The translations under genes were made by a program, and so were the position numbers. Below, one piece after another: positions 1 through 11,639 of a stretch of 11,639 nt of DNA. The notes under the pieces are model-generated. The model saw only the letters and a program-made list of their open reading frames with translations. It did no database searches and was not told the origin of the DNA. Source of the stretch: Candidatus Rokuibacteriota bacterium (GTDB lineage: Bacteria > Methylomirabilota > Methylomirabilia > Rokubacteriales > CSP1-6); NCBI GenBank assembly GCA_016184305.1, contig JACPCX010000001.1:1-11639 (forward strand), in the 5' to 3' direction. The number at the start of each line of letters is the position of its first letter. Within the stretch, counting starts at the first letter, position 1.

Positions 1-1
1 C

Positions 2-658
2 CTGGTCCATCGGACGCTGCTCGTCCGCGTCACCGGCGGGGGCAACCCGCAACGCCTGATGGACGCCCAGCTCATCCTCACCCTCGGCCTCTCCCTCATC
101 ATCACGAACGCGACGACGATGATCCTCACGCCCATGCCCCGCGGTATCCAGACGGCCTACGCCACCCAGGCCTTCGCCGTCGGCCCCATCCTCATGAACC
201 AGGCCCGCTCCTACGCCTTCCTCATGGCCCTCGTGCTGGCCGGCCTCGTGTACGTCTTCCTCACCCGGACCGACGTCGGCAAGGCGCTCCGGGCGGCGGC
301 CGACGAGCCGGAGGCCGCCGGCTACCAGGGCATCGACGTCCGCGCCATGCACGGCCTCGCGTTCGGCGTCGGCATCGCGCTGGTGGCGGCGGCCGGCGGG
401 CTGCTCGCCACCTACCACCCGATCGAGCCCACCGTCGCCGTGAACTTCATCGTCCTCATGTTCGTGGCCGTCGTGCTCGGCGGGCTCGGGAGCATCCCGG
501 GCGCCTTCGCCGGCGGCCTCGTCATCGGGCTCGTCCAGTCGCTCACGCTGCTCGTGCTCCCCTTCCAGCTCCAGAACGCCGGCGTCTTCATCGCCTTCCT
601 GCTCGTCCTGTACCTACGGCCCCAGGGCCTCTTCGGCCAGCGGCTCCGCGCGGTCTGA
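2..658 (+). CDS. livH: Branched-chain amino acid-type ABC transporter permease (LivH-like), 5' truncated by window edge
   Basis: Frame open from base 2 (LVHRTLLVRV...). Hydrophobic protein with LivH-type motifs RTDVGKALRAAAD, VVLGGLGSIPGAFAGG and LRPQGLFG. Confidence 0.88.
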   Translation: MVHRTLLVRVTGGGNPQRLMDAQLILTLGLSLIITNATTMILTPMPRGIQTAYATQAFAVGPILMNQARSYAFLMALVLAGLVYVFLTRTDVGKALRAAADEPEAAGYQGIDVRAMHGLAFGVGIALVAAAGGLLATYHPIEPTVAVNFIVLMFVAVVLGGLGSIPGAFAGGLVIGLVQSLTLLVLPFQLQNAGVFIAFLLVLYLRPQGLFGQRLRAV

Positions 659-2451
659 TGGCGGCCGTTCCCGCCTCCCGCCTGCGCGGGCTCGCCCCCA
701 TCGGCCTCGTCGTTCTCCTGGGGCTCGCCCTGAGTTTCGCCCTCGGCGAGCGCTATCACCACCGGGTCCTGACCCTCGTCTTCGTGTGGGCGACGATGGG
801 GCTCGCCTGGAACATCATCAGCGGCTACGCGGGGCAGACCTCCTTCGGCCACCAGGCCTTCTTCGGGGTGGGCGCCTACGTCACGGTCCTCCTCATCGTC
901 GGCTTCCGCCTCACGCCGTGGCTCGGCCTCGTGGTCGGCACGGTGGCCGCCGTCGTCGCCGCCGCCCTCATCGGCTTCCCCACCTTCCGCCTGGCCGGGA
1001 TCTACTTCGCGCTGGCCACGCTCGCCTACCCGCTCATCCTCCGCATCTTCATGGACTTCCTGGGCTACCAGGAGGTCGCGATCCCCATGGTGCGCGACCG
1101 TCCGGCCCTCTACATGCAGTTCACCGATCCCCGCGCCTACGACCTCCTGGCCCTGGCCGCGCTGGCGGGGACGCTGCTGCTCTCGCACTGGATCGAGACC
1201 TCGCGGCTCGGCTACGCGCTGCGGGCGCTGAAGGAGAACGAGCAGGCGGCGGAGGCGGCCGGGGTCGACACCTTCCGGGCGAAGATGATCGCCTTGATGC
1301 TGAGCGCCGCCCCCGCCGCGGTGATCGGGGCGATCTACGCCCACGCCATCCTCTACGTCGTCACCCCCGACGCCGTCTTCGGCCTCCTCGTGATCGTGCA
1401 GACGCTCGTCGTTTGCCTCGTGGGCGGGGTTGGCACGAAGTGGGGCCCGGTGCTCGGGGCGGCGATCATGGTCCCGATGAGCGAGACGCTCGACGCCACC
1501 ATCGGGGACCGGCTGCCCGGGATCCAGGGCGTGGTGTACGGCGCCGCCCTCGTGCTCGCCATGCTCTTCGCGCCCGAGGGGATCTACTGGCGGCTGCGGG
1601 CGCTGCTTCCGGCCCGGCGGGCCGCGCCCGCGCTCGCAGGCGCCGCGGCGGCGAGGGAAGGCCCGATCGCCGCGGACCTCGCGGGACGCGCCCCGGTGGC
1701 CCGCGGCGCCACCCTCATGGACGTCCGTGGAGTCTCCAAGGCGTTCCTGGGCCTCCACGCCCTCGAGGAGGTGAGCTTCACCGTCCGCTCCGGCGAGATC
1801 CTCGGCGTCATCGGTCCCAACGGCGCGGGCAAGACGACGCTCTTCAACGTGCTCGACGGCTTCCTCGCGCCCGACCAGGGGGAGGTCCGCTACCGCGACG
1901 CGCGGATCACCGGGCTCCGTCCCAGCGCCATCTGCCGCGGCGGGGTCGGCCGTACGTTCCAGGTCGTCCGCTCGTTCCCTCAAATGACGGTGCTGGAGAA
2001 CGTCATGGTGGGAGCGTTCGTGCACGAGACCGCGCCGCACCGTGCGCGGCAGCGCGCCCTGGCCGCCCTCGCCTCGGTGGGGCTCGAGGCGCGCGCCGAC
2101 CTCGTCCCGAGCGGCCTCACCACCCTCGACCTCCGCCTCATGGAGCTGGCCCGCTGCCTCGCCACCGCGCCCGACCTCATCCTGCTCGACGAGCCGCTGG
2201 CCGGGCTCGCGCGCGACGGCGTGGAGACGGTGATGGCTTTGGTCCGTCGCGTGCGCGACGGGGGCGTGACGGTCGTGATCATCGAGCACACCATGTACGC
2301 GGTCGTCCAGCTCGTCGACCGCCTCGTCGTCCTCGACCACGGGCGCCGGGTGGCCGAAGGGCTGCCGGGCGAGGTGGTGCGGGATCCGGCCGTCATCGAG
2401 GCGTACCTCGGAAAGCGCTGGCTCCGTCATGTTGAAGGTCTCCGGACTTAG
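658..2451 (+). CDS. Fused ABC transporter permease (LivM-like) + ATP-binding domain (LivG-like)
   Basis: N-half has LAWNIISGYAGQTSFGHQAFFG and LVGGVGTKWGPVLGA. C-half has Walker A GPNGAGKTT, Walker B LILLDEP, IIEH and VIEAYLG. Start overlaps upstream stop (TGATG). Confidence 0.9.
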   Translation: MAAVPASRLRGLAPIGLVVLLGLALSFALGERYHHRVLTLVFVWATMGLAWNIISGYAGQTSFGHQAFFGVGAYVTVLLIVGFRLTPWLGLVVGTVAAVVAAALIGFPTFRLAGIYFALATLAYPLILRIFMDFLGYQEVAIPMVRDRPALYMQFTDPRAYDLLALAALAGTLLLSHWIETSRLGYALRALKENEQAAEAAGVDTFRAKMIALMLSAAPAAVIGAIYAHAILYVVTPDAVFGLLVIVQTLVVCLVGGVGTKWGPVLGAAIMVPMSETLDATIGDRLPGIQGVVYGAALVLAMLFAPEGIYWRLRALLPARRAAPALAGAAAAREGPIAADLAGRAPVARGATLMDVRGVSKAFLGLHALEEVSFTVRSGEILGVIGPNGAGKTTLFNVLDGFLAPDQGEVRYRDARITGLRPSAICRGGVGRTFQVVRSFPQMTVLENVMVGAFVHETAPHRARQRALAALASVGLEARADLVPSGLTTLDLRLMELARCLATAPDLILLDEPLAGLARDGVETVMALVRRVRDGGVTVVIIEHTMYAVVQLVDRLVVLDHGRRVAEGLPGEVVRDPAVIEAYLGKRWLRHVEGLRT

Positions 2452-3136
2452 CGTCGCCTACGGCGGGCTCCAGGCCCTGGCCGGGGTCTCTCTCGAGGTC
2501 GCCGAGGGCGAGTTCGTGGCCATCGTGGGCCCGAACGGCGCCGGCAAGAGCACGCTCATGAAGGCCGTCGCCGGCGGCGTGCCCCTCGGGGCCGGCAGCA
2601 TCGAGTACCGCGGGCAGAACATCGGCGCGCTGCCGTCGCACTCGCGGGCCCGGCTCGGGATCGCCCACGTGCCCGAGGGACGGAAGGTCTTCCCCTCGCT
2701 CACGGTGCTGGAGAACCTCGAGATGGGCTCCTACCGGCCCGCCGCCCGGCGCCGGCGGGCGGAGGGCCTCGACACCGTGCTCGGGCTCTTCCCCGTCCTC
2801 CGCGAGCGGCGCGATCAGCTCGCCGGCTCCCTCTCGGGCGGCGAGCAGCAGATGCTCGCCCTCGGCCGGGGGATCATGGCCCAGCCCGATCTGCTCCTGC
2901 TCGACGAGCCCTCCCAGGGCCTCGGCCCCCGGATCGTGGAGGGGATCTTCGAGGCCATCGCCGCCATCAGGAAGAACCGCCGCGTGACGATCCTGCTCGT
3001 CGAGCAGCGGGTGGTCGAGGCGCTCGAGCTGTGCGACCGCGGCTATGTGCTGGAGACGGGCCGGGTGGCGCTGGGCGGCGACCGGGAGACGCTGCTCGCC
3101 GACCCGCGTGTCCAGCACGCCTACCTCGGGACCTGA
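2429..3136 (+). CDS. livF: ABC transporter ATP-binding protein (LivF-like)
   Basis: GPNGAGKST, HVPEGRKVF, LSGGEQQMLA, LLLLDEPS, LLVEQ motifs. Confidence 0.92.
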   Translation: MLKVSGLSVAYGGLQALAGVSLEVAEGEFVAIVGPNGAGKSTLMKAVAGGVPLGAGSIEYRGQNIGALPSHSRARLGIAHVPEGRKVFPSLTVLENLEMGSYRPAARRRRAEGLDTVLGLFPVLRERRDQLAGSLSGGEQQMLALGRGIMAQPDLLLLDEPSQGLGPRIVEGIFEAIAAIRKNRRVTILLVEQRVVEALELCDRGYVLETGRVALGGDRETLLADPRVQHAYLGT

Positions 3137-3143
3137 GGGAACG

Positions 3144-4757
3144 ATGGAGCCGCCCCGGAGCCGCACTCTCGGCGATCTCCTCGACGAGATGGCCGCCCGC
3201 TATCCGGAGGGCGAGGCGGTTGTCTTCGGGGGCGACCGGCTCACCTACGAGGAGTACCGCAGCCGCGTGCGGGCGCTCGCCCGGGGGCTCCACCGGCTGG
3301 GCGTGCGCCGCGGCGACAAGGTCGCCCTCCTCATGGGCAATCGCACCGAGTGGCTGCTCGTGGACTTCGCTGTGGCCCTGCTCGGCGCCACCCTCGTGCC
3401 CGTCAGCACCTGGTCGACGGCGCGCGAGCTCGAGTACGTGCTCGCCCACGCGGAGGCAACCGCCCTCGTCACCGTGGACCGCTTCCGCGGCCAGGACTAC
3501 CTGGCCATGCTGGGGGCGATCGGCCCCGGCAGCCAGCGGCTGCCGCTCCTGCGGCACGTTGTATGCCTTGGCGGCGAGAGCGTTCCCGGCATCACCCCCT
3601 TCGCCGACCTCCGGGAGATCGGGGCCGGGATCCCGGAATCCGTCGTGGACGAGGCCCAGCGGGCGGTCCGGCCCACCGACATCGCGTACATCCTCTACAC
3701 CTCCGGCACCACCTCGACCCCCAAGGGCGTCCAGCTCGAGCACGCGGGCCTCGTCGAGAACATGTTCAGCATCGGGGAGCGCCAGCACCTCGGCCCCGCC
3801 GACCGCCTGTGGCTCGGCATCTCGCTCTTCTGGGGCTTCGGCTGCGAGAACGCGCTCCTGGCCGTCATGACCCACGGCGGGTGCGTGGTGTTGCAGGAGC
3901 ACTTCGATCCGGGCGAGGCGTTGCGCCTCATCGAGAGCGAGCGGTGCACGGTCTATTACGGCACCCCGAACGTCGCGCTGGCGCTCTGGGAGCACCCCGA
4001 CCGTCCCAGCCGCGATCTCCGCTCTCTCAGGACGGGCGCGGCCATCGGGCATCCGCCGGCGATCCAGATGGTGATGGACCTCGGCGCCCGGGAGATCTGC
4101 AACGTGTACGGGCTCACCGAGTGCTACGGCAACTGCACGCTCACCGACGCCCACGACCCCGTGGACGCCCGCCTCCACACGGTGGGCCGGCCGCTGCCGG
4201 GGATGGAAATCAAGATCGCCGACCCCGCCACCCACCGCCCGCTCCCGCCCGGCGAGATCGGCGAGATCGCGCTCCGGGGCTACATCACCCCCGGCTACTA
4301 CAGGGACCCCGAGACGAACGCGGCCGCCTTCGACCCCGATGGCTTCTTCCTCACCGGCGACCTCGGCTGGTTCGACGCCGACGGCCGTCTCCGCTTCCAC
4401 GGTCGCATCAAGGACGTGGTGAAGACGGGCGGCCTCAACGTCTCCCCCCTCGAGGTCGAGCAGATCCTCCTCGGCCACCCCGCCGTCGAGCAGGCCCACG
4501 TGGTCGGGGTGCCCGACTCGCGCAAGCAGGAGGCGCTGGCCGCGGTGGTGGTGCTGAAGGAGGGGGCGACCGCTTCCGCCGGCGAGCTGCGCGCCTTCTG
4601 CCGCGAGGCCCTGGCCGCCTTCAAGGTCCCCCAGCACGTCCGGTTCCTCTCCCGCCAGGCCCTGCCCCTCACCGCCTCCGGCAAGGTCCAGAAGCACCGG
4701 CTGCGCGAGCGCCTGGTCGCCGAGCTGGACGCCGTCCCCGCCGACCGCCATGGCTGA
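3144..4757 (+). CDS. AMP-binding acyl-CoA synthetase / ligase
   Basis: YILYTSGTTSTPKGV (A3), YGLTE, TGDLG, GRIKDVVKTGG, LPLTASGKVQK. ATG at 3144 follows GAGGGA just after the livF stop, preferred over the track start at 3045. Confidence 0.9.
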   Translation: MEPPRSRTLGDLLDEMAARYPEGEAVVFGGDRLTYEEYRSRVRALARGLHRLGVRRGDKVALLMGNRTEWLLVDFAVALLGATLVPVSTWSTARELEYVLAHAEATALVTVDRFRGQDYLAMLGAIGPGSQRLPLLRHVVCLGGESVPGITPFADLREIGAGIPESVVDEAQRAVRPTDIAYILYTSGTTSTPKGVQLEHAGLVENMFSIGERQHLGPADRLWLGISLFWGFGCENALLAVMTHGGCVVLQEHFDPGEALRLIESERCTVYYGTPNVALALWEHPDRPSRDLRSLRTGAAIGHPPAIQMVMDLGAREICNVYGLTECYGNCTLTDAHDPVDARLHTVGRPLPGMEIKIADPATHRPLPPGEIGEIALRGYITPGYYRDPETNAAAFDPDGFFLTGDLGWFDADGRLRFHGRIKDVVKTGGLNVSPLEVEQILLGHPAVEQAHVVGVPDSRKQEALAAVVVLKEGATASAGELRAFCREALAAFKVPQHVRFLSRQALPLTASGKVQKHRLRERLVAELDAVPADRHG

Positions 4758-4768
4758 GGGCCTGACCC

Positions 4769-5950
4769 ATGCCTGAGACGATGACCATGCGCGACAAGAC
4801 GGCGATCGCCGGCGTGGGCGTGAGCCGGTTCGGCCGCTTCCCCGACGAGAGCCCCCTCAAGCTCGCCGTCGAGGCGTTCAAGGCCGCCCTCGCCGACGCC
4901 GGGCTCGGCCGGGACGAGGTCGACGGGGTGGCCATCAATATCGGCTGGCCGCTCGGCGTGGACTACGACCGCTTCGCGGAGACCGTCGGCCTCGACCTCC
5001 GCTTCGCCGACCAGACGTGGACCCACGGCCGCTTCGTGGGCCCCACCCTCCAGCACGCGGCGATGGCGGTGGCGGCCGGTCTCGCCCGCTGCGTGGCCTG
5101 CGTGTGCGGCGTGAGCTTCCACCAGCAGCGCGGCCTCCTCGGCGGCCCCGCCGACGTCGAGGGGACGCGCGAGGAGGGCGGCACCCACGAGGAGAACCCC
5201 GTGTACGGGATGACAGCCCCGGCCGCCGGCGCCGCGCTTTCCGCCCAGCGCTACTTCGCCCTCTACGGGGCGACCAGTCGCCAGCTCGCCGCGGTTCCCC
5301 TGGCCTTTCGCAAGCACGCCGCGCTCAACCCTCAGGCCATCATGCGGACGCCCCTCACGCTGGAGGAGCACCAGGCCTCCCGCTACATCGTGGAGCCCCT
5401 GCACCTTTACGACTGCTGCCTGGTCTCGGACGGCGCCGCCTGCGTCCTCGTGACCACCGCCGAGCGGGCCCGCGACGGCCGGAAGCCCCCCGTCCTCGTC
5501 GCCGGCATGCAGGGCATGCGGGCCGGCCGCGACGAGTTCCTCTTCGCCCCCCGGGGCCTCGGCATCCACCAGCAGCGGCATGTCCGCCACACGCCGTCGG
5601 CCGAGGACCTCCTCGTCTACCGCATGGCGGGCACCTCGCGGGACGATATGGACGGCCTCTACACCTACGACGCGTTCTCGCCGCTCGTGCTCTTCACGCT
5701 CGAGCGCTTCGGCTTCTGCGGGCCGGGCGAGGCCGCCGCGTGGGTGCAGGACGGGCGGATCGAGCTGGGGGGTGAGCTGCCGATGAACACCTCCGGCGGG
5801 CTCCTTTCCGAGGCCCACGTCTCGGGCTGGAACTCCATCGTGGAGATCGTCCGCCAGCTCCGGGGCGAGGCGGGCCCGCGCCAGATCGCCGGCGCCCGCG
5901 TGCTCCAGTGGGGGACGTGCTGGGGCGACTCCCTGGTGTTCCGCCGGTGA
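4769..5950 (+). CDS. Thiolase-like protein (SCP-x/Ltp2-like, DUF35-associated)
   Basis: AIAGVG start, [33 protein letters not shown]. Directly upstream of a DUF35 gene. Start could be 4769, 4781 or 4787. Confidence 0.88.
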
Positions 5951-6209
5951 GCGGTTACGCTCGGCCGCTCCCGCGCGTCACCCCCGACAACCTGCCCTTC
6001 TGGGAGGCCGCGCGCCGCCACGAGCTGCGCCTCCAGCGCTGCGGGGGTTGCGGGCGGTTCTGGCACCCGCCGGGCCCCGTGTGCCCCGACTGCCTCTCCG
6101 AGCGATTCGACTGGACGCCGGTGAGCGGGCGGGGGACGGTCTCGAGCTTCGTGGTCTTCCACAAGGCCTACTTCCCGGCGTTCGCCGACGCGATCCCCTA
6201 CGCCGTCGT
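5947..6209 (+). pseudogene. N-terminal part of DUF35 Zn-ribbon/OB-fold protein (C-terminus deleted)
   Basis: GTG overlapping the thiolase stop (GTGA). [20 protein letters not shown]...CPDC...[10 protein letters not shown]...IPYAVV, then an abrupt switch to LLM sequence. Confidence 0.85.
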
Positions 6210-6311
6210 GGGCCTCCGCTTCGGGGTCACGCTCGCCGCCTACCCCGACGGCGTGCCGCCGGCCGCGTGGTGGTGGCGGTTCGCCGAGCGGGCCGAGGCC
6301 CTCGGCTTCGA
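6210..6311 (+). repeat. Direct-repeat copy of the LLM oxidoreductase 5' end (partner 11188-11289)
   Basis: 102 bp, about 6 mismatches by manual alignment. Encodes [33 protein letters not shown]. Confidence 0.93.
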
Positions 6312-6501
6312 GGCCCACCCCACCCGCCGGCGCCGCCGCCGGCTGGGCTGCGCCAGACACCGTTTGTGCTGGCTTCGCTCCGCGGAGGATGACGTCGGCC
6401 ACAGGCCTGTTGCTCGCGCGAGGGGAAGCGACGGCTGGACTGCCCTTCGCCCTCCGTGCGTCGCGCCCCACGCAGTAAGGGCACGACGCGATCTCACGAA
6501 G

Positions 6502-6776
6502 TTGAGCGCGTTGCTGTTTCTCTACCGCGACGTCCTCGGGCAAGATCTGCCGTGGCTCGACGATGTCGTCCGGGCCAAGCGGACCACGCGCCTGCCGGTG
6601 GTCCTCACCCGTGAGGAAGTGCAAGCCGTGGTTCGCCAGCTCCGTGGCACCCACCGGCTCATGGCGATCCTGCTCTATGGAGCCGGTCTCCGCCTCCTCG
6701 AGTGCGCGCGCCTCCGGGTGAAGGACGTTGATTTCGCCCGGCACCAGATCACCGTGCGCGCGGGAAAGGGCGACAA
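6502..6776 (+). pseudogene. intI: Internal fragment of integron integrase (tyrosine recombinase)
   Basis: [38 protein letters not shown]...[22 protein letters not shown]...ITVRAGKGD is typical of IntI. Lacks the N-terminus and the C-terminal HxxR/Y catalytic region. Adjacent to an attC array. Confidence 0.9.
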
Positions 6777-7056
6777 CAAGACCGCCGGATACATCGGTGG
6801 GATGGGACGCCCGGGACTGAAGGCATCGCTTCATCCGCCGATCGATACGGGCCTCTGGGACGGCCTTCGTGAACGGTTTCGAGACAGGACCGCGATCCTC
6901 GACGAAGTCCAATGCGTCCGTCGCATCAAGGAGATCGGTGACTATTCCACGTACCGCCGGATCATCAAGGGCTGCCGGCTGGCGGCGGCCGAACTCGGCT
7001 GCCTTCTCATCGAGTTGGAGCAGTTATGGTTGGGCGCAGCGACGCCGGAGGTCTAA
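6777..7056 (+). pseudogene. 3' remnant of a cassette gene of unknown function
   Basis: [27 protein letters not shown]...[12 protein letters not shown]. Stop TAA lies inside the attC inverse core GTCTAAC, the usual cassette arrangement. No start of its own. Confidence 0.65.
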
Positions 7057-7147
7057 CTTCCGGATGCAGGCGCCGGCGGGCGCATTGGGCGCGGCCGATG
7101 ACAGACGGTTGGCGTGCGCCCGCTGCGCCTGATCCGGCGCGTTAGCC
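7051..7147 (+). other. attC site 1
   Basis: R'' GTCTAAC (7051-7057), R' GTTAGCC (7141-7147). Arms CCGGAT[G]CAGGCGC[C]GGCGGGCGCA and TGCGCCCGCTGCGCCTGATCCGG pair with two unpaired bases on the left arm. Confidence 0.92.
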
Positions 7148-7169
7148 AGCGCCAAGGACCAGCACACTC

Positions 7170-7619
7170 GTGCCTCTACCACGGCTGACCGAAAACGGCG
7201 AGCTGCCGATCGGAGTACACCTAGGATCCTTGCGCGAGGTTCTGGAGCGCTTCGGTGTTGGTTCCGACCAACGCAAGGCCCTGGCTCTCCGCCTCGTGCG
7301 CGTCCACAGCGTGGCTCAAGCGACCGGCCACCTGGCGCGATTCGTCATTTTCGGGTCGTTCGTTACGAGCAAGAGTGAGCCCAACGACGTCGATATCGTC
7401 CTGGTCATGGCCGACGCCTTCGACGCGTCCCAGCTGCGCGGCGAGGCACTGCTTCTCTTTGATCACGGTGCCGCGCAAGCGTACTTCGGCGCCAGCGTGT
7501 TCTGGCTCCGGCGACTGGCAGCGTGGCCGAACGAGCAGGCGGCGGTAGAATTCTGGCAAGTGAAGCGCGGTGGTGGCCAAAGGGGCATCATCGAAGTCAC
7601 GCGGGGGGAGGCATCATGA
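7170..7619 (+). CDS. Minimal Pol-beta-like nucleotidyltransferase (DUF6932-like), cassette gene
   Basis: GTG start 23 nt after R', AAGGA upstream. FVIFGSFVTSKSEPNDVDIVLV carries the GS...DxD motif. Confidence 0.78.
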   Translation: MPLPRLTENGELPIGVHLGSLREVLERFGVGSDQRKALALRLVRVHSVAQATGHLARFVIFGSFVTSKSEPNDVDIVLVMADAFDASQLRGEALLLFDHGAAQAYFGASVFWLRRLAAWPNEQAAVEFWQVKRGGGQRGIIEVTRGEAS

Positions 7620-7822
7620 TCAGCGACGACCAAGAACTCAGCGCCACGCTGGAGCGAATCCGCCATCTCCAGACTCAGGTAACCCATCTCCGCAAGACGG
7701 AGACCAATCCCACGAACTACCACCTGTCGGCATCCGGGTTCCTCGCCGAGATCGACCGGATGCAGCTCGAGGTGCGCGAGTACCTCTCCCTTCATCCCGG
7801 TGAGGTGAAGGCTAGTGCCTGA
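7616..7822 (+). CDS. 68-aa helical hypothetical protein, translationally coupled to the nucleotidyltransferase
   Basis: ATGA overlap at 7616-7619 with GGAGG RBS. MISDDQELSATLERIRHLQTQVTHLRK...FLAEIDRMQLEVREYL. Confidence 0.75.
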   Translation: MISDDQELSATLERIRHLQTQVTHLRKTETNPTNYHLSASGFLAEIDRMQLEVREYLSLHPGEVKASA

Positions 7823-7852
7823 GCGCGCGCGGCGCAACGGTGAGTGGCGACT

Positions 7853-7905
7853 GGCTGACTTCTGCTTCCAGCCGACCGGCGTCGCCGGCGGCTGAAGCAT
7901 GCGTT
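7853..7905 (+). other. attC site 2, R' core interrupted by the IS
   Basis: R'' GGCTGAC. Arms TGCTT[C]CAGCCG[A]CCGGCG / CGCCGGCGGCTGAAGCA, then GTT at 7903-7905. The remainder AGGC is at 9453-9456. Confidence 0.85.
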
Positions 7906-7919
7906 GATATGACTTCCAC

Positions 7920-8223
7920 TGTCGAGAGTCACGATAACGGAGGACCGCGCGTACCCCTGGCATCTTGCTGCGTGGGGTTCGGAGGTTGCTCGAGCCATCG
8001 GAAGAGGCGGGGCCTGTACCTGCGACGGTTGCTCATGCTGATCTCCGTGGGTTGGGTACCACCGTACCGGTGTCCGTCGCGGCGCCGGCTTCGCTCTAGG
8101 GGCGAGGGTTGTGGTCTCATAACGCGATCGAAGATTGCGCCGATACCGGGGCCGCGCCTCCGCCGATGGCTCAAGATCGGGATCATGGGGTCTGCACTCC
8201 GTCCACCTCGATGGACCCGCCCG
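7920..8223 (-). ncRNA. Putative bridge/seek RNA region of the IS1111-type element
   Basis: About 300-nt non-coding region downstream of the transposase. Closing stem GAGCCATCGG (7992-8001) / CCGATGGCTC (8163-8172) extends inward. Short matches to target and end sequences. RNA boundaries are not known. Confidence 0.68.
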
Positions 8224-9339
8224 TCAGGAGGCCAGGGGCACGAGCCGGGCGATGGCCCAGGCGAAGGCGGCCATCTCGCGGGCGATGGCCGCCACGACCT
8301 GGTTGACGTGCTTGCCGCGGGCGGTGAGCTGCCGATACCGTTTGCACAGGCGGACCTGCGCCTTCCAGCCGATCGCCTGGACCTCGGCGGGCAGCTTCTC
8401 CAGCCGGAGCTGCAGATGCCGGCTGACCTTGGCCGGATACCGATACGCCCACGCCCCTTCCACCAGTGGCCGCCGGGCGTGGCTGTTCCCCGCCTTTGTA
8501 ATGCCGCCTTGATGGCGCCGCGCTCCCGACGAGTACTCCGAGGGGGTCAGCCCGAGGGAGCTCATGAGCTGACGCGGGCTGTCGAAGCGCGTGAGGTCCC
8601 CGAGCTCGGTCATCACGATGACGGCGCCGATGAGCTCCACGCCCCGGAGGGCTTGGATCGCCTCGACCACCGGGTAGAGCCGCCAGCCCTTGACCGCCTC
8701 GTGCAGCTCGCGCTCCACGCGCTGCACCCGGTCCTGCTGCTCGGTGACGGCGCGCACGTACTCCTGAAAGACGATCTGCTGCGGCGGGGTCGGGCACACC
8801 ACCTGGGCCAGCCAGCGGAGATGGGCGGGGTTCCAGGTCGCCCGACCCTCGTAGCGAATGTCCCGCCGCAGCAGGAACGACTTCAGCCGGCGCTTGCTCC
8901 GCTTGAGGTCCTGCATGGCATCGTCGCGGCCGCGGCCCAGGTCCCGCAGCGCTTCGTCTTCGACCCAGGGCACGTAGATCGCGCTCAGGTCGCCGCTGCG
9001 CATCAAACGGGCCAGGGTGATCGCGTCGCGCCGATCCGTCTTCACGCGGTCCCCCGCCTTCCGCGGGATGAGCGACGGCGCCACGACCTGGCTGGCCAGA
9101 CCTGTCCCGGTGAGGTACCGATACAGCCCGTAGCCGCACGGCCCCGCCTCGTAGCCGAACATCAGCGTCGCACCCTTCGACTCGAGCCTCCGGATCAGCT
9201 TGTCGATGTCGCTCTGCCGGGTCCCGATCGCCCCCAGCGACACCACCTGGGCGCCGCGGTCCTCGGGCGCGTAGGCGACGCTGATCGAGTCCTTGTGCAC
9301 ATCGAGCCCGACATACAGAGTTTTGCTAGACTCGTCCAT
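8224..9339 (-). CDS. IS110-family DEDD transposase/recombinase, 371 aa
   Basis: [23 protein letters not shown] (DEDD), C-terminal [11 protein letters not shown] and [16 protein letters not shown] upstream. Confidence 0.96.
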
Positions 9340-9471
9340 GGCTGACCTCCACGTTCGTTGGGTGCCCTGCGCACCAGGCGGCTCTGGCCCCTCCAGGCTA
9401 ACCCGCGCAGAGCGCTGGGGGTCAGCCTCACCTCGTGGAAGTCATACTCTCTAGGCGTACTGAGCACGCGC

Positions 9472-9500
9472 TTGCGACGCGACGATCGGGAAGGGAGAAT
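9472..9500 (+). promoter_or_regulatory. Putative sigma70-type cassette promoter
   Basis: TTGCGA (9472-9477), 17-bp spacer, GAGAAT (9495-9500), 6 nt before the antitoxin ATG. Confidence 0.45.
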
Positions 9501-9506
9501 ACGCTC

Positions 9507-9725
9507 ATGAAGAACGTGCTTGAGGACATTCTCTCGCTCAGCGTGGCGGAGCGCCTGCAACTCGTAGAGGATATCTGGGACAGCATCGCAGCGCACCCTG
9601 AAGCGGTCCCGGTCACCGAGGCCCAGCGCAAGGAACTGGCCAGGCGCAAGCGGGCGCACACGCGGAACCCTGAGGCCGCGAAGCCCTGGGAGGAAGTGCG
9701 CGCGCGGCTCAAGCGGCGTCGGTGA
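9507..9725 (+). CDS. Addiction module antitoxin (TIGR02574-like), 72 aa
   Basis: ILSLSVAERLQLVEDIWDSI...TEAQRKELARR...PWEEVRARL. Overlaps the downstream toxin (GTGA). Confidence 0.88.
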   Translation: MKNVLEDILSLSVAERLQLVEDIWDSIAAHPEAVPVTEAQRKELARRKRAHTRNPEAAKPWEEVRARLKRRR

Positions 9726-10018
9726 GACTTCGCCTTACGCGGGAAGCTGAGGCGGATCTCGATGCCGCTTACGCGTGGTACAGGGAACAGAGCTACGGCC
9801 TCGGCGACGCGTTCCTACGATCGGTCGACGCATGTCTTGCGTCAATCGACCGGGAGCCCGAGGCGTATCAGCTCATCGACAGAACGATGCAGCGGGCGCT
9901 GCTTCGACGATTTCCCTACGGCGTGTTCTTCGAGGTGGCAGCGACGGAGATCATCGTCTACGGAGCCTTTCATTGCGCCAGGGACCCCGAGGTCTGGAGG
10001 CGACGACGGGACGCATAA
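9722..10018 (+). CDS. RelE/ParE family toxin
   Basis: EAEADLDAAYAWY...GLGDAF...RALLRRFPYGVFF...GAFHCARDP. Stop lies inside the attC R''. Confidence 0.9.
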   Translation: MRLRLTREAEADLDAAYAWYREQSYGLGDAFLRSVDACLASIDREPEAYQLIDRTMQRALLRRFPYGVFFEVAATEIIVYGAFHCARDPEVWRRRRDA

Positions 10019-10070
10019 CTTCAGCGTCCAGCGGACGCCGAGACGGCGCCGCTGACGCTGACCGTTGGGC
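10013..10070 (+). other. attC site 3
   Basis: R'' GCATAAC, R' GTTGGGC. Arms TCAGCGTC[C]AGCGG[A]CGCCG-aga-CGGCGCCGCTGACGCTGA give canonical extrahelical G and T on the bottom strand. Confidence 0.95.
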
Positions 10071-10141: not shown

Positions 10142-10465
10142 GTGATGCTCGACAGCGACGTCCTCTTCGAGGTCCGCACCCCACTGGGGTTCTCGGTTCG
10201 CGTGACCCGGGCTCGGTGGCAACTGATTACGAGCATGAAGCATCCAGTAATGGCCGGTCGGGAGTGGAGCGTGAGGCTAGCGTTGGAGAAGCCGGATGAG
10301 GTTCGCCAGAGTCGGACCGACCCAGAGGTGTTGCTCTTCTACAAGGCGGAAGAGGCCCGACGTTGGGTGTGCGCCGTCATCAAGCGGGCCGGCGATCAGG
10401 CTTTCCTGGTAACCGCGTACCCAACGGACGCAATCAAGGAAGGCATACGAGTATGGCCGAACTGA
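10142..10465 (+). CDS. Putative RelE/BrnT-like (DUF4258/PBECR-like) toxin, cassette gene
   Basis: RWQLITSMKHP...LEKPDEVRQSRTDPEVLLFY...AFLVTAY pattern. Overlaps a DUF2283-like gene. Start is GTG 10142 or ATG 10145. Confidence 0.65.
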   Translation: MMLDSDVLFEVRTPLGFSVRVTRARWQLITSMKHPVMAGREWSVRLALEKPDEVRQSRTDPEVLLFYKAEEARRWVCAVIKRAGDQAFLVTAYPTDAIKEGIRVWPN

Positions 10466-10665
10466 ACGTGCTCTACGACCGTGAGGGACGGACCCTCACC
10501 GTGTGGTTCAGCGATCGACACCAGGAACACGTATGCGAGGAGACTGGCGAGGACGTCGTGCTCATGAAGGACGCGGCCGGACATGTCATTGGGTTTGAGA
10601 AGCTCAATTTCTCTATTCCCGAGACTGACCGGCTTCACGTCGCCATTGAAACGGCACCTGGGTGA
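10453..10665 (+). CDS. DUF2283-like putative antitoxin, 70 aa
   Basis: YDREGRTLTVWF...ETGEDVVLMKDAAGHVIGFEKLN resembles the DUF2283 pattern. Acidic and small. Confidence 0.78.
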   Translation: MAELNVLYDREGRTLTVWFSDRHQEHVCEETGEDVVLMKDAAGHVIGFEKLNFSIPETDRLHVAIETAPG

Positions 10666-10671
10666 GTGGCC

Positions 10672-10761
10672 GCCCAACAACCACGTCGCGCGGCCCGCCC
10701 GCAAGCTACGCTTGCGGGTTCCCTCGCTTCGCTCGGCGGCCGCTCACGTGGACCGTTAGAC
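10672..10761 (+). other. attC site 4
   Basis: R'' GCCCAAC (exact complement of this cassette's GTTGGGC at 10064), R' GTTAGAC. Arms CCACGT[C]GCGCGGCC[C]GCC / GGCGGCCGCTCACGTGG with inner hairpin CCCGCAAGC-tac-GCTTGCGGG. Confidence 0.9.
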
Positions 10762-10940
10762 GCACAGGCATTCCGGTGTGGGCCACGAGTTACTGGCGAG
10801 AGGGCCAGGATCAGGCGCGAGGCGGCGGCGATCCTGAAGTCCGTGCGAGGACAGATGAGGGACGACCGTTACGAGGAGAAGCTACGGGCACTTGGGTCAG
10901 GGCGGAAGTGATGAGTCTGCGTTTACCTCTAACGACCGTC

Positions 10941-11069
10941 GACGGCCTCCACACCTACGACGCCTTCTCGCCGCTCGTGCTCTTCACGCTCGAGCGCGTC
11001 GGCTTCTGCGGGCCGGGCGAGGCCGCCGCGTGGGTGCAGGACGGACGGATCGAGCTGGGGGGTGAGCTG
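10941..11069 (+). repeat. Direct-repeat copy of an internal thiolase segment (partner 5651-5779)
   Basis: 129 bp, 4 mismatches by manual alignment. Encodes [43 protein letters not shown]. Confidence 0.95.
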
Positions 11070-11183
11070 GCGAACGTGGTGGACGTCCCGCCCGCGGAGA
11101 TCCGGATCGACATGGCCGTCAGCGTCGTCTTCGACGACGTGACGCCGGAGATCAGCATCCCGCGCTTCCGCCGCGCCCCGTGA
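11070..11183 (+). pseudogene. C-terminal part of DUF35 OB-fold protein
   Basis: ANVVDVPPAEIRIDMAVSVVFDDVTPEISIPRFRRAP* is a typical DUF35 C-terminus and is the part missing at 6209. Confidence 0.82.
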
Positions 11184-11639
11184 GCGGGGGCCTCCCCGTC
11201 GGGGTCACGCTCGCCGCCTACCCCGACGGCGTCCCGCCCGCCGTGTGGTGGTGGCGGTTCGCCGAGCGGGCCGAGGCCCTCGGTTTCGACTCCCTGTGGG
11301 CCGGCGAACATGTCCTCTTCCACACGGAGACGGTCAGCGCCACCGTCCTCTTGGCCGGCCTCGCCGCCCGCACGGGCCGGATCCGCCTCGGCACCGCCAT
11401 CTACCTCCTGCCGCTCCGCCATCCCGTCCTCGCCGCCAAGGACCTGGCCACGCTCGACCACGTCGCGGGCGGCCGGCTCGTCGTCGGCGTCGGGGTCGGC
11501 GGAGAGTACCCCCGGGAGTTCGCCGGTTGCGCCGTGCCGCTCGGCGAGCGCGGCGCGCGGACGGACGAGGCGCTCGCTCTCTTGCGCCGTCTCTGGCGGG
11601 AGGAACGGGTGACGGCGGCCGGGGCCCACTTCCCCCTGG
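11180..11639 (+). CDS. LLM-class flavin-dependent oxidoreductase (luciferase-like), runs off window end
   Basis: GTG overlapping the upstream TGA. AEALGFDSLWAGEH, TGRIRLGTAIYLLPLRHPVLAAKDLATLDHVAGGRLVVGVGVG, ERGARTDEAL. Not in the ORF track because there is no stop in the window. Confidence 0.92.
   Translation, partial: MSGGLPVGVTLAAYPDGVPPAVWWWRFAERAEALGFDSLWAGEHVLFHTETVSATVLLAGLAARTGRIRLGTAIYLLPLRHPVLAAKDLATLDHVAGGRLVVGVGVGGEYPREFAGCAVPLGERGARTDEALALLRRLWREERVTAAGAHFPL

Follow-up and report, generated by a model that had tools for sequence, protein, structure and literature searches.

How does an insertion sequence (IS) come to lie exactly inside the recombination core of an integron attC site? 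The question is raised by a window of 11,639 nucleotides, the whole stretch of DNA analysed here, from a Candidatus Rokuibacteriota bacterium (assembly GCA_016184305.1, contig JACPCX010000001.1). In this window an IS splits the second attC site of a cassette array (Table 1). The answer we propose is that the IS is an intact-looking IS1111-type element from a cross-phylum clade, and that the R' recombination core of attC is what its guide RNA is programmed to find. We consider this reading very probably correct.

Table 1. Coordinates of the features in the window; RNA features are predicted.
Feature	Position	Strand	Details
Integron integrase remnant	6493-6780	plus	model positions 65-160 of 315
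Further attC sites (four)	7051-7147, 10013-10070, 10672-10761, remnant 10927-10933	plus	attC1 R' = GTTAGCC, 7141-7147
Cassette 2	7142-7902	plus	DUF6932 protein 7170-7619 (Pfam PF22014, E 6e-24) and overlapping 68-aa ORF 7616-7822
attC2, left part	7853-7905	plus	R'' GGCTGAC (7853-7859), L''/loop/L', GTT of R' (7903-7905)
IS1111-type IS	7906-9452	minus	1547 bp, opposite to cassette direction
Subterminal inverted repeat, RE of IS	7908-7919		TATGACTTCCAC, 12 bp, recessed 2 nt
-35-like box TCGACA in RE	7920-7925	minus	conserved alignment block; most relatives TTGACA
Structured guide RNA, seekRNA/bridge-RNA type	8023-8158	minus	inside non-coding region 7906-8223
Donor-joint motif	8038-8044	minus	RNA AGAUCAG against RE end ATATC + LE AG, 6/7
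Guide 2	8094-8102	minus	RNA CCCCUAGAG = left-flank last bases (CCT), then LE first bases (AGAG)
Guide 1	8120-8127	minus	RNA UCGCGUUA, reverse complement of left flank's last base + right flank (T^AACGCG)
Transposase gene	8224-9339	minus	371 aa, intact ORF
Subterminal inverted repeat, LE of IS	9435-9446		GTGGAAGTCATA, exact reverse complement of 7908-7919, recessed 6 nt
-10-like box GAGTAT in LE	9444-9449	minus	3/6 against TATAAT; relatives CATAAT or CAGTAT
attC2, right part	9453-9456	plus	AGGC of R' core, also first bases of cassette 3
Cassette 3	9457-10070	plus	PF09720 antitoxin-like ORF 9507-9725, ParE-like toxin ORF 9722-10018, attC3 10013-10070

Once the IS is excised by script, attC2 is 57 nt long and forms the same R''/L''-loop-L'/R' hairpin as attC1, attC3 and attC4. 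R'' pairs with R' and L'' with L', and the DNA fold has a z-score of -2.5 against shuffles. The restored R', GTT+AGGC, fits GTTRRRY. The R'' of attC2 carries GAC in place of AAC, and a 94%-identical homologue (G022:C155) has the canonical GGCTAAC. In attC4 the R'' GCCCAAC is complementary to the preceding R' GTTGGGC at 7/7 positions. The integrase remnant scores 122 bits against TIGR02249, far below the cut-off of 265, and no full-length integron integrase was found in the assembly, which is 88.8% complete.

The transposase belongs to the IS110 family. It is a DEDD transposase with an IS110-type N-terminal domain (Pfam PF01548, E 2.5e-17, profile positions 1-151 of 155) and a C-terminal Transposase_20 domain (PF02371, E 5.4e-18), and it scores 247 bits against a cut-off of 140 for NCBIfam NF033542, "IS110 family RNA-guided transposase". 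Within the family the layout is that of the IS1111 group: 318 nt of non-coding DNA lie downstream of the transposase gene and 113 nt upstream (9340-9452). The group is defined by subterminal inverted repeats of 7-17 bp (PMC11208160), a range that includes the exact 12-bp repeats found here. The transposase has 89% identity to a Candidatus Rokubacteria contig, and metagenomes hold more than 120 clusters at 82-91% identity. The closest named transposase is that of ISSso6, with 56% identity over residues 3-366 (98% of the length).

Both ends of the IS can be placed to the base, apart from a 1-nt ambiguity that allows either end to be moved by one T. The left flank ends in ...GAAGCATGCGTT, and the right flank begins AGGCGTAC. 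Related genomes contain homologues of cassette 2 without the IS, in G022 (two contigs, 92% and 94% identity) and G024 (79%); these read ...GCATGCGTT, followed directly by the next cassette. Homologues of cassette 3 start with GTT+ATGCGTAC in G001 (A(T)GCGTAC after GTT) and with GTT+ATCCGTACTGAG in G008. The uninterrupted homologues of both flanks show no target duplication, and the two junctions have only a single T in common. Together with the comparison of 64 relatives, they fix both ends. In four groundwater runs of one study, possibly the assembly's own source, contigs span both junctions with 0-1 differences. Summed contig depth in these runs is 20-200 times higher over the IS than over its flanks, which points to many copies of the same or closely similar elements (at least 90% identity) in the samples. 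Among these contigs, which could easily miss such molecules, neither a direct 7905-9453 join nor an RE-LE circle joint turned up.

An earlier, sequence-only reading of the window had called the IS an IS1111-type element, a call that the DEDD transposase, the subterminal repeats and the long non-coding region after the transposase gene bear out. It had also claimed that the IS splits the GTT^AGGC of an attC site, that its inverted repeats are recessed by 2-3 and 5-6 nt, that it is antisense to the cassettes and that GTTAGGC complements the next R'' (GCATAAC) at 6/7 positions. The split is supported by the sequence and by the IS-free homologues of both cassettes, and the repeats fall within the expected distances. 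The complementarity is as counted, and the transposase ORF and the cassette ORFs lie on opposite strands. The same reading had proposed a search for the empty site in relatives, and the uninterrupted homologues in G022, G024, G001 and G008 fit the ends that it predicted.

The same sub-site is used again elsewhere. A second copy in the same genome (G000:C224), 84% identical, also sits at GTT^AGGC, with flanks GACGTT and AGGCAC, in an attC-like site between plus-strand ORFs. Thus both full copies in this genome (2/2) lie at the R' core. The second copy is decayed: compared with the window copy it lacks about 57 bp (judged by eye), and its transposase frame is broken into several ORFs. A solo IS end is found on contig C13 of the same genome.

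Among 84 related elements the ends could be assigned in 64, and 55 of these have canonical ends. The right flank begins with AAC in 29 of the 55, and partial loci contribute the left flanks GCCT, ACCT, GGCT and others. In total about 30 relatives are inserted at RYYY^AAC(G/A), which is GTT^ARRY on the cassette strand. ORFs flanking the relatives are antisense to the transposase gene in 18/22 left flanks and 20/24 right flanks; cassette orientation was determined gene by gene for the window copy, the second copy and a copy on a Klebsiella plasmid.

This Klebsiella copy is a 56%-identical member of the clade in a clinical class 1 integron on an IncC plasmid. It sits antisense between arr-3 and qacEdelta1, flanked by GGCGGCGTT and AGATGCACTAAGC. 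A megablast search of the element against PLSDB matched only its own record. Another candidate integron copy, H58 from K. pneumoniae (42% identity), was rejected; its locus is not in an integron.

To compare the target sites we rebuilt them without the IS. A crude R''/L'' score separated the classes poorly (median 9 versus 7), and fold z-scores were used instead. Strong structure is the rule in rebuilt AAC-class sites (median z -4.4; 19/25 at z of -2 or below), in contrast to the rebuilt sites of other targets (median z -0.54; 5/25). The remaining 6/25 AAC-class sites have no such structure, for example the site of a Pseudoalteromonas plasmid copy (L006, z 0.85). Hence it is sequence that the element reads, and look-alike sites outside attC have received some of the insertions.

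What reads the sequence is, we predict, an RNA. The non-coding region 3' of the transposase gene is predicted to encode a structured RNA, supported by covariation, with segments that match the target. Folding 29 homologues together gives a consensus of 23 pairs, and compensatory changes are seen at 12 of these. In the alignment 96.5% of cells pair, compared to 29-49% when the partners are slid, and two-sided changes occur in 79 cells, compared to 15 or fewer. The window RNA folded alone is not more stable than shuffles (z 0.38), and a search of the whole window against Rfam, with E up to 1, matched no family.

Two segments of this RNA follow the flanks of the element. In nearly all of 34 relatives, and across differing targets, guide 1 reads as the right flank's reverse complement. 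Its column-wise identity averages 6.91/8 with the element's own flank and 4.04 with swapped flanks. With their own flanks, 42/55 elements match the junction-spanning flank exactly over 7 nt or more; with swapped flanks only 50/550 pairings do. The same alignment columns hold a matching guide also in relatives whose targets are quite unlike this one (AGTCCTTG, ATCAGG, AGGGTGG, AGCGGTTC and others). For guide 2 the signal is weaker: over four flank-specific columns, 2.74/4 agree with the own flank and 1.79 with swapped flanks. A third segment, the donor-joint motif, matches the joined IS ends at 7/7 positions in 30/34 relatives, and a matching variant is present in 4/6 elements with variant RE ends. 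We also searched the second loop, on its 5' side, for another donor guide that would pair with the LE start; no consistent match was seen.

The sequence-only reading had suggested that the element targets the R' core and had proposed aligning the flanks of other copies. That comparison places the second copy and about 30 relatives at an attC-R'-type site. With both copies in the genome at this site, and with a guide segment of the element's own facing it, we regard the suggestion as well founded.

How would such an element reach its site? The mechanism would be ordinary seekRNA or bridge-RNA guided recombination, aimed at the R' core of attC. By analogy with work on ISEc11, ISKpn4 and IS621, from which we borrow circle formation, junction promoter activity, RNA-protein binding and the chemistry, the element would leave as a circle. 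The RE-LE joint of this circle would unite the -35 and -10 boxes; in the predicted joint, TCGACA and GAGTAT are 17 nt apart, and they may act as a junction promoter. Judging by its title, a 2006 study by Prosseda, listed in PMC11187229, reportedly assigns such a role to the junction of ISEc11. A transcript across the transposase gene and the 3' non-coding region would yield the structured RNA, which the DEDD recombinase would bind. One internal loop of the RNA would hold both guides and the second loop a copy of the RE-LE joint. Guide 1 would pair with T^AACGCG on the IS-direction strand, in other words with the complement of the cassette-strand sequence ...CGCGTT^A, and guide 2 would repeat the last bases of the left flank. 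The outcome of recombination would be an element lodged between GTT and ARRY, in antisense to the cassettes, with no duplication.

For the array, the split R' of attC2 would mean that cassettes 2 and 3 are effectively fused. The IS begins 2 nt 3' of the G^TT crossover and would thus travel with the downstream ParE cassette. Cassette 3 would carry it along as its 5' end, provided that the residual GTT together with the purine-rich RE end works with an integrase. Such travel would require that attC2, though split, can still recombine, and only a remnant of the local integrase gene is left. A point against the guided reading is that attC1 of this array (GCGCGTTAGCC) fits guide 1 at 7/8 positions, better than attC2, but carries no IS.

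Is the window copy still able to move? Although its ORF is intact, the copy may be functionally impaired. The window flank facing guide 1 is T^AACGCatg, a site match of 6/8; guide 2 matches 3/4 flank bases; the donor motif has a mismatch, and the promoter boxes are weak. One could go further and see in it a correctly classed but dead relic, immobile, with the inactivation of attC2 as its sole present effect. Weak junction boxes, a donor motif with one mismatch and a guide 1 with two are what a relic might show, and it would have company in the plainly decayed second copy, the solo end on C13 and the integrase remnant. Against this, the ORF spans its full 371 aa and shares 89-91% identity with many metagenomic proteins, neither inverted repeat has a mismatch, the alignment shows no break in the RNA helices, and the contig depth over the IS points to many similar copies in the samples. 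We consider a dead relic rather unlikely.

Alternatively, the element could recognise attC as a folded single-stranded hairpin, in the manner of the integrase, instead of a base sequence, and the guide matches would be secondary. The strong structure of the rebuilt sites would suit such a mode, as would an insertion point 1-2 nt from the integrase crossover and an orientation that is fixed relative to the cassettes. Yet guide 1 covaries with the right flank also at unstructured targets outside attC, the unstructured minority of AAC-class sites was used all the same, and the reprogramming of ISEc11 shows that sequence sets the target, according to PMC11187229. Hairpin recognition thus has very little in the way of probability.

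Guided recombination at the R' core, the reading we prefer, has relatives among known systems. The IS1111-attC group (ISPst6, ISPa21, ISKpn4, ISUnCu1 and ISPa25) was reportedly treated by Tetu and Holmes in 2008 and by Post and Hall in 2009. It is alike in its IS1111-type design, in being site-specific in attC, in its antisense orientation to the cassettes (stated for ISPa21 and ISPst6 in PMC3001079), and in a 3' non-coding RNA that picks the target, with the top-strand match 5' of the bottom-strand match. According to PMC11187229, a seekRNA has been demonstrated for ISKpn4 and ISPst6. The difference lies in the insertion point. Table 1 of the review PMC13604230 gives the ISKpn4 target as CGGCTTGAA followed by CGAATTGTTAG, and the group is placed near the attC 5' end, at ...CTAACAATTCG^TTCAAG... 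(PMC13604230 Table 1, PMC3001079). Our scan with the group's inverted-repeat motif returned 80 loci, about 50 of them (counted by eye) with the motif as an IS end. Nearly all of these ends directly follow ...YCTAACAAnnnG, about 6 nt after R'' at the attC 5' end, and in four full elements the remainder of attC lies beyond the other end. In contrast, the window IS is found at GTT^ARRY in R', at the 3' end of attC. Its inverted repeats are unrelated to those of the group, and its transposase falls outside the monophyletic ISPst6/ISPa21 subgroup. In BLASTP its transposase aligns only locally (35.6% over 87 residues, E 5e-13) with an IS1111-attC transposase, a stand-in chosen by the group's repeat motif and flanks.

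That the window IS is a plain member of this group is hardly tenable: it has the same family-level design, attC insertion and antisense orientation, in a group that tolerates divergence (as ISPa25 shows, its transposases can be only 46% identical to each other, according to PMC11187229), but it has unrelated repeats, it lies at the opposite end of attC from both the published and the scanned insertion points, and its transposase is far closer to that of ISSso6, which is not an attC element. The choice between the described group and an independent lineage, left undecided by the earlier reading, falls on the latter, given the different attC sub-site and the short transposase match.

Three other systems bear comparison. 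ISEc11/ISSso6, from Shigella and E. coli virulence plasmids and the experimental model for seekRNA, share the end layout AG..ATGAC...GTCATATC with the window IS. In a quick tree they fall in the same 45-row clade as the window transposase, nested among attC-R' elements. Unlike these, ISEc11 has a short linear target (GTGAAAATACTGT) and not attC, as listed in PMC13604230 Table 1. IS621 of the IS110 group (Durrant et al. 2024, PMC11208160) is alike in combining a DEDD recombinase with one structured RNA, whose two internal loops hold target- and donor-matching segments for both strands. It differs in carrying the RNA in its left end, upstream of the gene, with inverted repeats of 2-3 bp and a recombinase that is only distantly related. 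Group IIC-attC introns are likewise mobile, home to attC and are antisense; they are retroelements with another mechanism, and their position as given in PMC3001079 is near the attC 5' end. No published IS1111 element at GTT^RRRY was found in the literature searched, which excluded both primary papers of 2008-2009. The clade is apparently large, cross-phylum, unnamed and distinct from the described IS1111-attC lineage, although a prior description is possible.

A wider reading is possible, and we offer it tentatively. The clade may be a second, independent IS1111 lineage in integrons, guided to the R' core (GTT^A), far more widespread than the one named in 2008, and able to ride from host to host at the head of a cassette; ISEc11/ISSso6 would be a retargeted offshoot. 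If so, the guide would consist of the near-universal R' core GTT^A plus a few bases before it, and its variable part would track the attC family of the host: AACGCC in marine Gammaproteobacteria, AACGTTT in sulfur oxidisers, and AACGC or AACGT in soil and groundwater phyla. Such riding would be made possible by landing 2 nt past the integrase crossover. Transposases that are nearly identical in different phyla, and the one copy in a clinical class 1 integron, would then have an explanation.

In many bacteria, exchangeable genes are stored mainly in integron cassette arrays, and insertion into attC governs whether the adjoining cassettes can still be excised or expressed. Should a second lineage home to the R' core rather than to the attC 5' end, annotation tools will meet attC sites that seem complete up to GTT and then end, and there would be a simple cause for apparent two-gene or IS-containing cassettes in surveys. 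Natural guide-target pairs would also be available by the dozen in this clade, with a guide position that can be read off, as material on the evolution of seekRNA and bridge RNA specificity. The single copy on a Klebsiella IncC plasmid indicates that members of the clade can reach clinical integrons.

The R' core of attC2 is split by an IS1111-type element, and the stretch 7853-9456 that the sequence-only reading had singled out is exactly attC2 plus this insertion. The element conforms to the IS1111 layout as it is defined in PMC11187229 and PMC11208160, and its closest transposase match among the best 80 of 574 relatives is a Candidatus Rokubacteria copy. Cutting it out by coordinates leaves a 57-nt site with a normal attC fold.

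Features of the integron remnant, the inserted element and their surroundings
Feature	Position	Strand	Remarks
Ordinary metabolic genes	1-6316, 10941-11639		branched-chain ABC transporter, AMP-binding enzyme, thiolase-like, ChsH2-like, luciferase-like oxidoreductase
Integron integrase fragment	6493-6780	same as cassettes	TIGR02249 positions 65-160 of 315
attC1	7051-7147	+ (cassettes)	
attC2, split	7853-7905, 9453-9456	+ (cassettes)	
IS1111-type element	7906-9452		1547 bp
Inverted repeats			exact 12 bp, lying 2 nt and 6 nt inside the element ends
Non-coding regions of element			113 nt upstream and 318 nt downstream of the transposase gene (tnp)
tnp ORF		-	371 aa; both IS110-family Pfam domains; NCBIfam NF033542 over cut-off
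Putative promoter boxes	7925..7920, 9449..9444		TCGACA and GAGTAT; spacing would be 17 nt across a circle joint
Donor motif	8044..8038		AGAUCAG, one mismatch
Guide 2	8102..8094		CCCCUAGAG
Guide 1	8127..8120		UCGCGUUA; needs T^AACGCG, site has T^AACGCA, 6/8 columns match
attC3	10013-10070	+ (cassettes)	
attC4	10672-10761	+ (cassettes)	
Truncated attC	10927-10933		

In each case R'' pairs with the R' remainder that heads its own cassette: GCCCAAC with GTTGGGC at 7/7 positions, and GCATAAC with GTTAGGC at 6/7, the complementarity claimed earlier. In related genomes, the attC of cassette 2 homologues (G022:C68, 92% identity; G022:C155, 94%; G024:C11, 79%) is uninterrupted, reads ...GGCTGAAGCATGCGTT and is followed directly by a different cassette. 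Homologues of cassette 3 start with GTT+ATGCGTAC (G001:C96) or GTT+ATCCGTACTGAG (G008:C32). These homologues show that the element is inserted between GTT and A, with an ambiguity of one T.

Contigs from four groundwater runs of one study, possibly the one from which the assembly derives, bridge both element junctions with 0-1 differences. Summed contig depth in these runs is 20-200x higher for the IS than for its flanks. Hence the samples seem to contain many copies of the element or close kin (≥90% identity). Neither the circle joint nor an empty allele of the exact locus was found among the contigs of the four runs, which could easily miss them. In runs X1-X3, contigs join window position 7923 to 8292 via 7 other letters, and 7935 to 9234 via 34; such contigs may stem from miniature forms of the IS with internal deletions.

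To relatives found by scanning one genome per species (574, best 80 kept) we added the window element, a second copy from the same genome and two plasmid copies, giving 84 elements. Both ends were set in 64 and are canonical in 55. AAC opens the right flank in 29 of these 55, and their left flanks mostly end in RYYT, which corresponds to GTT^ARRY in cassette-strand orientation (attC-R' class). Partial loci of the closest relatives provide further left flanks (GCCT, ACCT, GCCC and GGCT). Rebuilt AAC-class sites have a median fold z of -4.4 (≤-2 in 19/25), compared to -0.54 for other targets (≤-2 in 5/25); by these z-scores some members of the class are inserted in unstructured look-alike sites. 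Antisense orientation relative to tnp is seen for the longest frame of the left flank in 18/22 cases and of the right flank in 20/24.

The second copy (L002, G000:C224, 1501-2990) is decayed and 84% identical, and lies between plus-strand ORFs with flanks GACGTT and AGGCAC. Judged by eye, ~57 bp of the window copy are missing from it, and its transposase frame is split. A solo LE (left end) fragment in the same genome (L003, G000:C13, about 1510-1640; 79% identical over 130 nt) has no adjoining transposase gene, and its flank is not attC-like.

A 56%-identical member, L005, lies antisense between arr-3 and qacEdelta1 on a K. pneumoniae IncC plasmid, with flanks GGCGGCGTT and AGATGCACTAAGC; the 3' conserved segment can be recognised there by its start. 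The host integron is of class 1, and this marine-type clade member (NZ_CP095763.1, 2896-4446) is inserted in its arr-3 attC at GTT^AGAT; the plasmid also carries blaNDM-1. The element occurs in 1 of 72,556 PLSDB records (megablast), and its nearest sampled relative is on an Alishewanella maricola contig (L048).

Target choice is mirrored in a predicted seekRNA/bridge RNA, as seen in an alignment of 34 elements over their 3' non-coding regions. A conserved CCTCGA precedes guide 1, a block that is reverse-complementary to the last left-flank base plus the first seven right-flank bases. On average it matches its own flank at 6.91 of 8 columns and swapped flanks at 4.04, with 8/8 columns in 14 of the 34 elements. 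The block matches at the same columns for unrelated targets (AGTCCTTG, ATCAGG, AGTACTT, AGGGTGG, AGGCTCT, AGCGGTTC). Independent of any alignment, exact junction-spanning matches of ≥7 nt occur for own flanks in 42/55 elements and in 50/550 swapped pairings. Guide 2, the last 2-4 left-flank bases followed by AGAG or AGAC (the LE start), gives a weaker signal (2.74 of 4 for own flanks, 1.79 swapped). The donor motif ATATCAG comprises RE (right end) and the first two LE bases, and tracks four of six variant ends. The guide order agrees with the seekRNA rule of PMC11187229, by which the segment matching the top strand comes 5' of the one matching the bottom strand.

The consensus structure of 29 RNAs (five marine sequences with a long insertion were left out) has 23 pairs, 12 with compensatory changes, and places guide and donor blocks in internal loops. 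Pairing holds in 96.5% of cells, compared to 29-49% when partners are slid; 79 cells changed on both sides, compared to at most 15. Sister elements (L028 and L033, L079 and L085, L020, L008) share an RNA scaffold and have quite different repeated targets, for example TTCCGGACA^AGCCGGAATGACA, with guide 1 rewritten to fit. Judged by these sequences, they are natural examples of retargeting.

The guides and promoter boxes of the window copy are imperfect; relatives have TTGACA and CATAAT as boxes. Although attC1 is empty, its positions 7136-7147 (GCGCGTTAGCC) fit guide 1 at 7/8 columns, more than the occupied attC2 does. In L002, a G replaces the second U of the window's UUA in guide 1, and the guide thereby loses its match to the L002 insertion site. 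Folded alone, the window RNA was no more stable than shuffles, and an Rfam scan of the whole window gave no match.

In a quick midpoint-rooted IQ-TREE of 78 of the 84 transposases (L002, L008, L023, L031, L040 and L043 were dropped for length), the window transposase and that of the Rokubacteria GWA2_70_23 copy group together (support 98). Their clade of 45 rows (support 98) contains 26 attC-R' elements, seven with a left flank only (five ending RYYY) and four without a known flank. Nested in its 32-row group (support 88) is a 13-row subclade (support 100) of Burkholderiaceae copies and ISSso6, whose known targets are almost all non-attC-R'. The tree's other half holds four more attC-R' elements. 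Target class clusters on this quick tree, yet at least 11 changes are required.

The described IS1111-attC group is a different matter. PMC3001079 places ISPa21 and ISPst6 antisense near the 5' end of attC, in a monophyletic subgroup, and Table 1 of a 2026 review (PMC13604230) lists CGGCTTGAA^CGAATTGTTAG as the ISKpn4 target. Scanning metagenome contigs for the group's 16-nt repeat motif (derived from a printed ISUnCu1 primer) returned 80 loci. The motif is an IS end in about 50 of them (by eye), nearly all flanked by ...YCTAACAAnnnG, ~6 nt after R''. Beyond the other end of four full elements lies the remaining attC, ending GTTAT or GTTAG. The 347-aa transposase of these elements and that of the window share just a local alignment, with 35.6% identity across 87 residues (E 5e-13), whereas ISSso6 is 56% identical to the window protein over nearly the whole length. 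Lineage, inverted repeats and sub-site all differ, and membership is very unlikely. The choice left open by the sequence-only reading is answered in favour of an independent lineage.

The window's contig has a high GC content, and the integron remnant sits between its two metabolic blocks. The integrase fragment is fused in frame to unrelated sequence, and a full-length integron integrase was not found in the assembly (239 contigs, 88.8% complete); small pieces lie at contig ends (C170 and C59). Partial duplicates bracket the 4.6-kb remnant (5651-5783 and 10941-11073, 96%; 6207-6316 and 11185-11294, 92%). They are diverged thiolase-like, ChsH2-like and luciferase-like genes with a different internal deletion in each copy, and look like the result either of foreign DNA integrating through one crossover event or of strains being joined into a chimera during assembly. 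At 7170-7822 one cassette encodes DUF6932 and a 68-aa ORF, overlapping at ATGA, and at 10142-10665 another encodes a 107-aa ORF and DUF2283, small ORFs that overlap or abut. Beside the PF09720/ParE cassette, these pairs look toxin-antitoxin-style.

GTT of attC2 now runs into GATA, which keeps a purine at two of the four RRRY positions. If attC2 is inactive, cassettes 2 and 3 would form one unit between attC1 and attC3; comparable IS-containing cassettes are reported for ISPa21 in a blaGES-5 survey (PMC11616780). If it is still active, the IS would be part of cassette 3.
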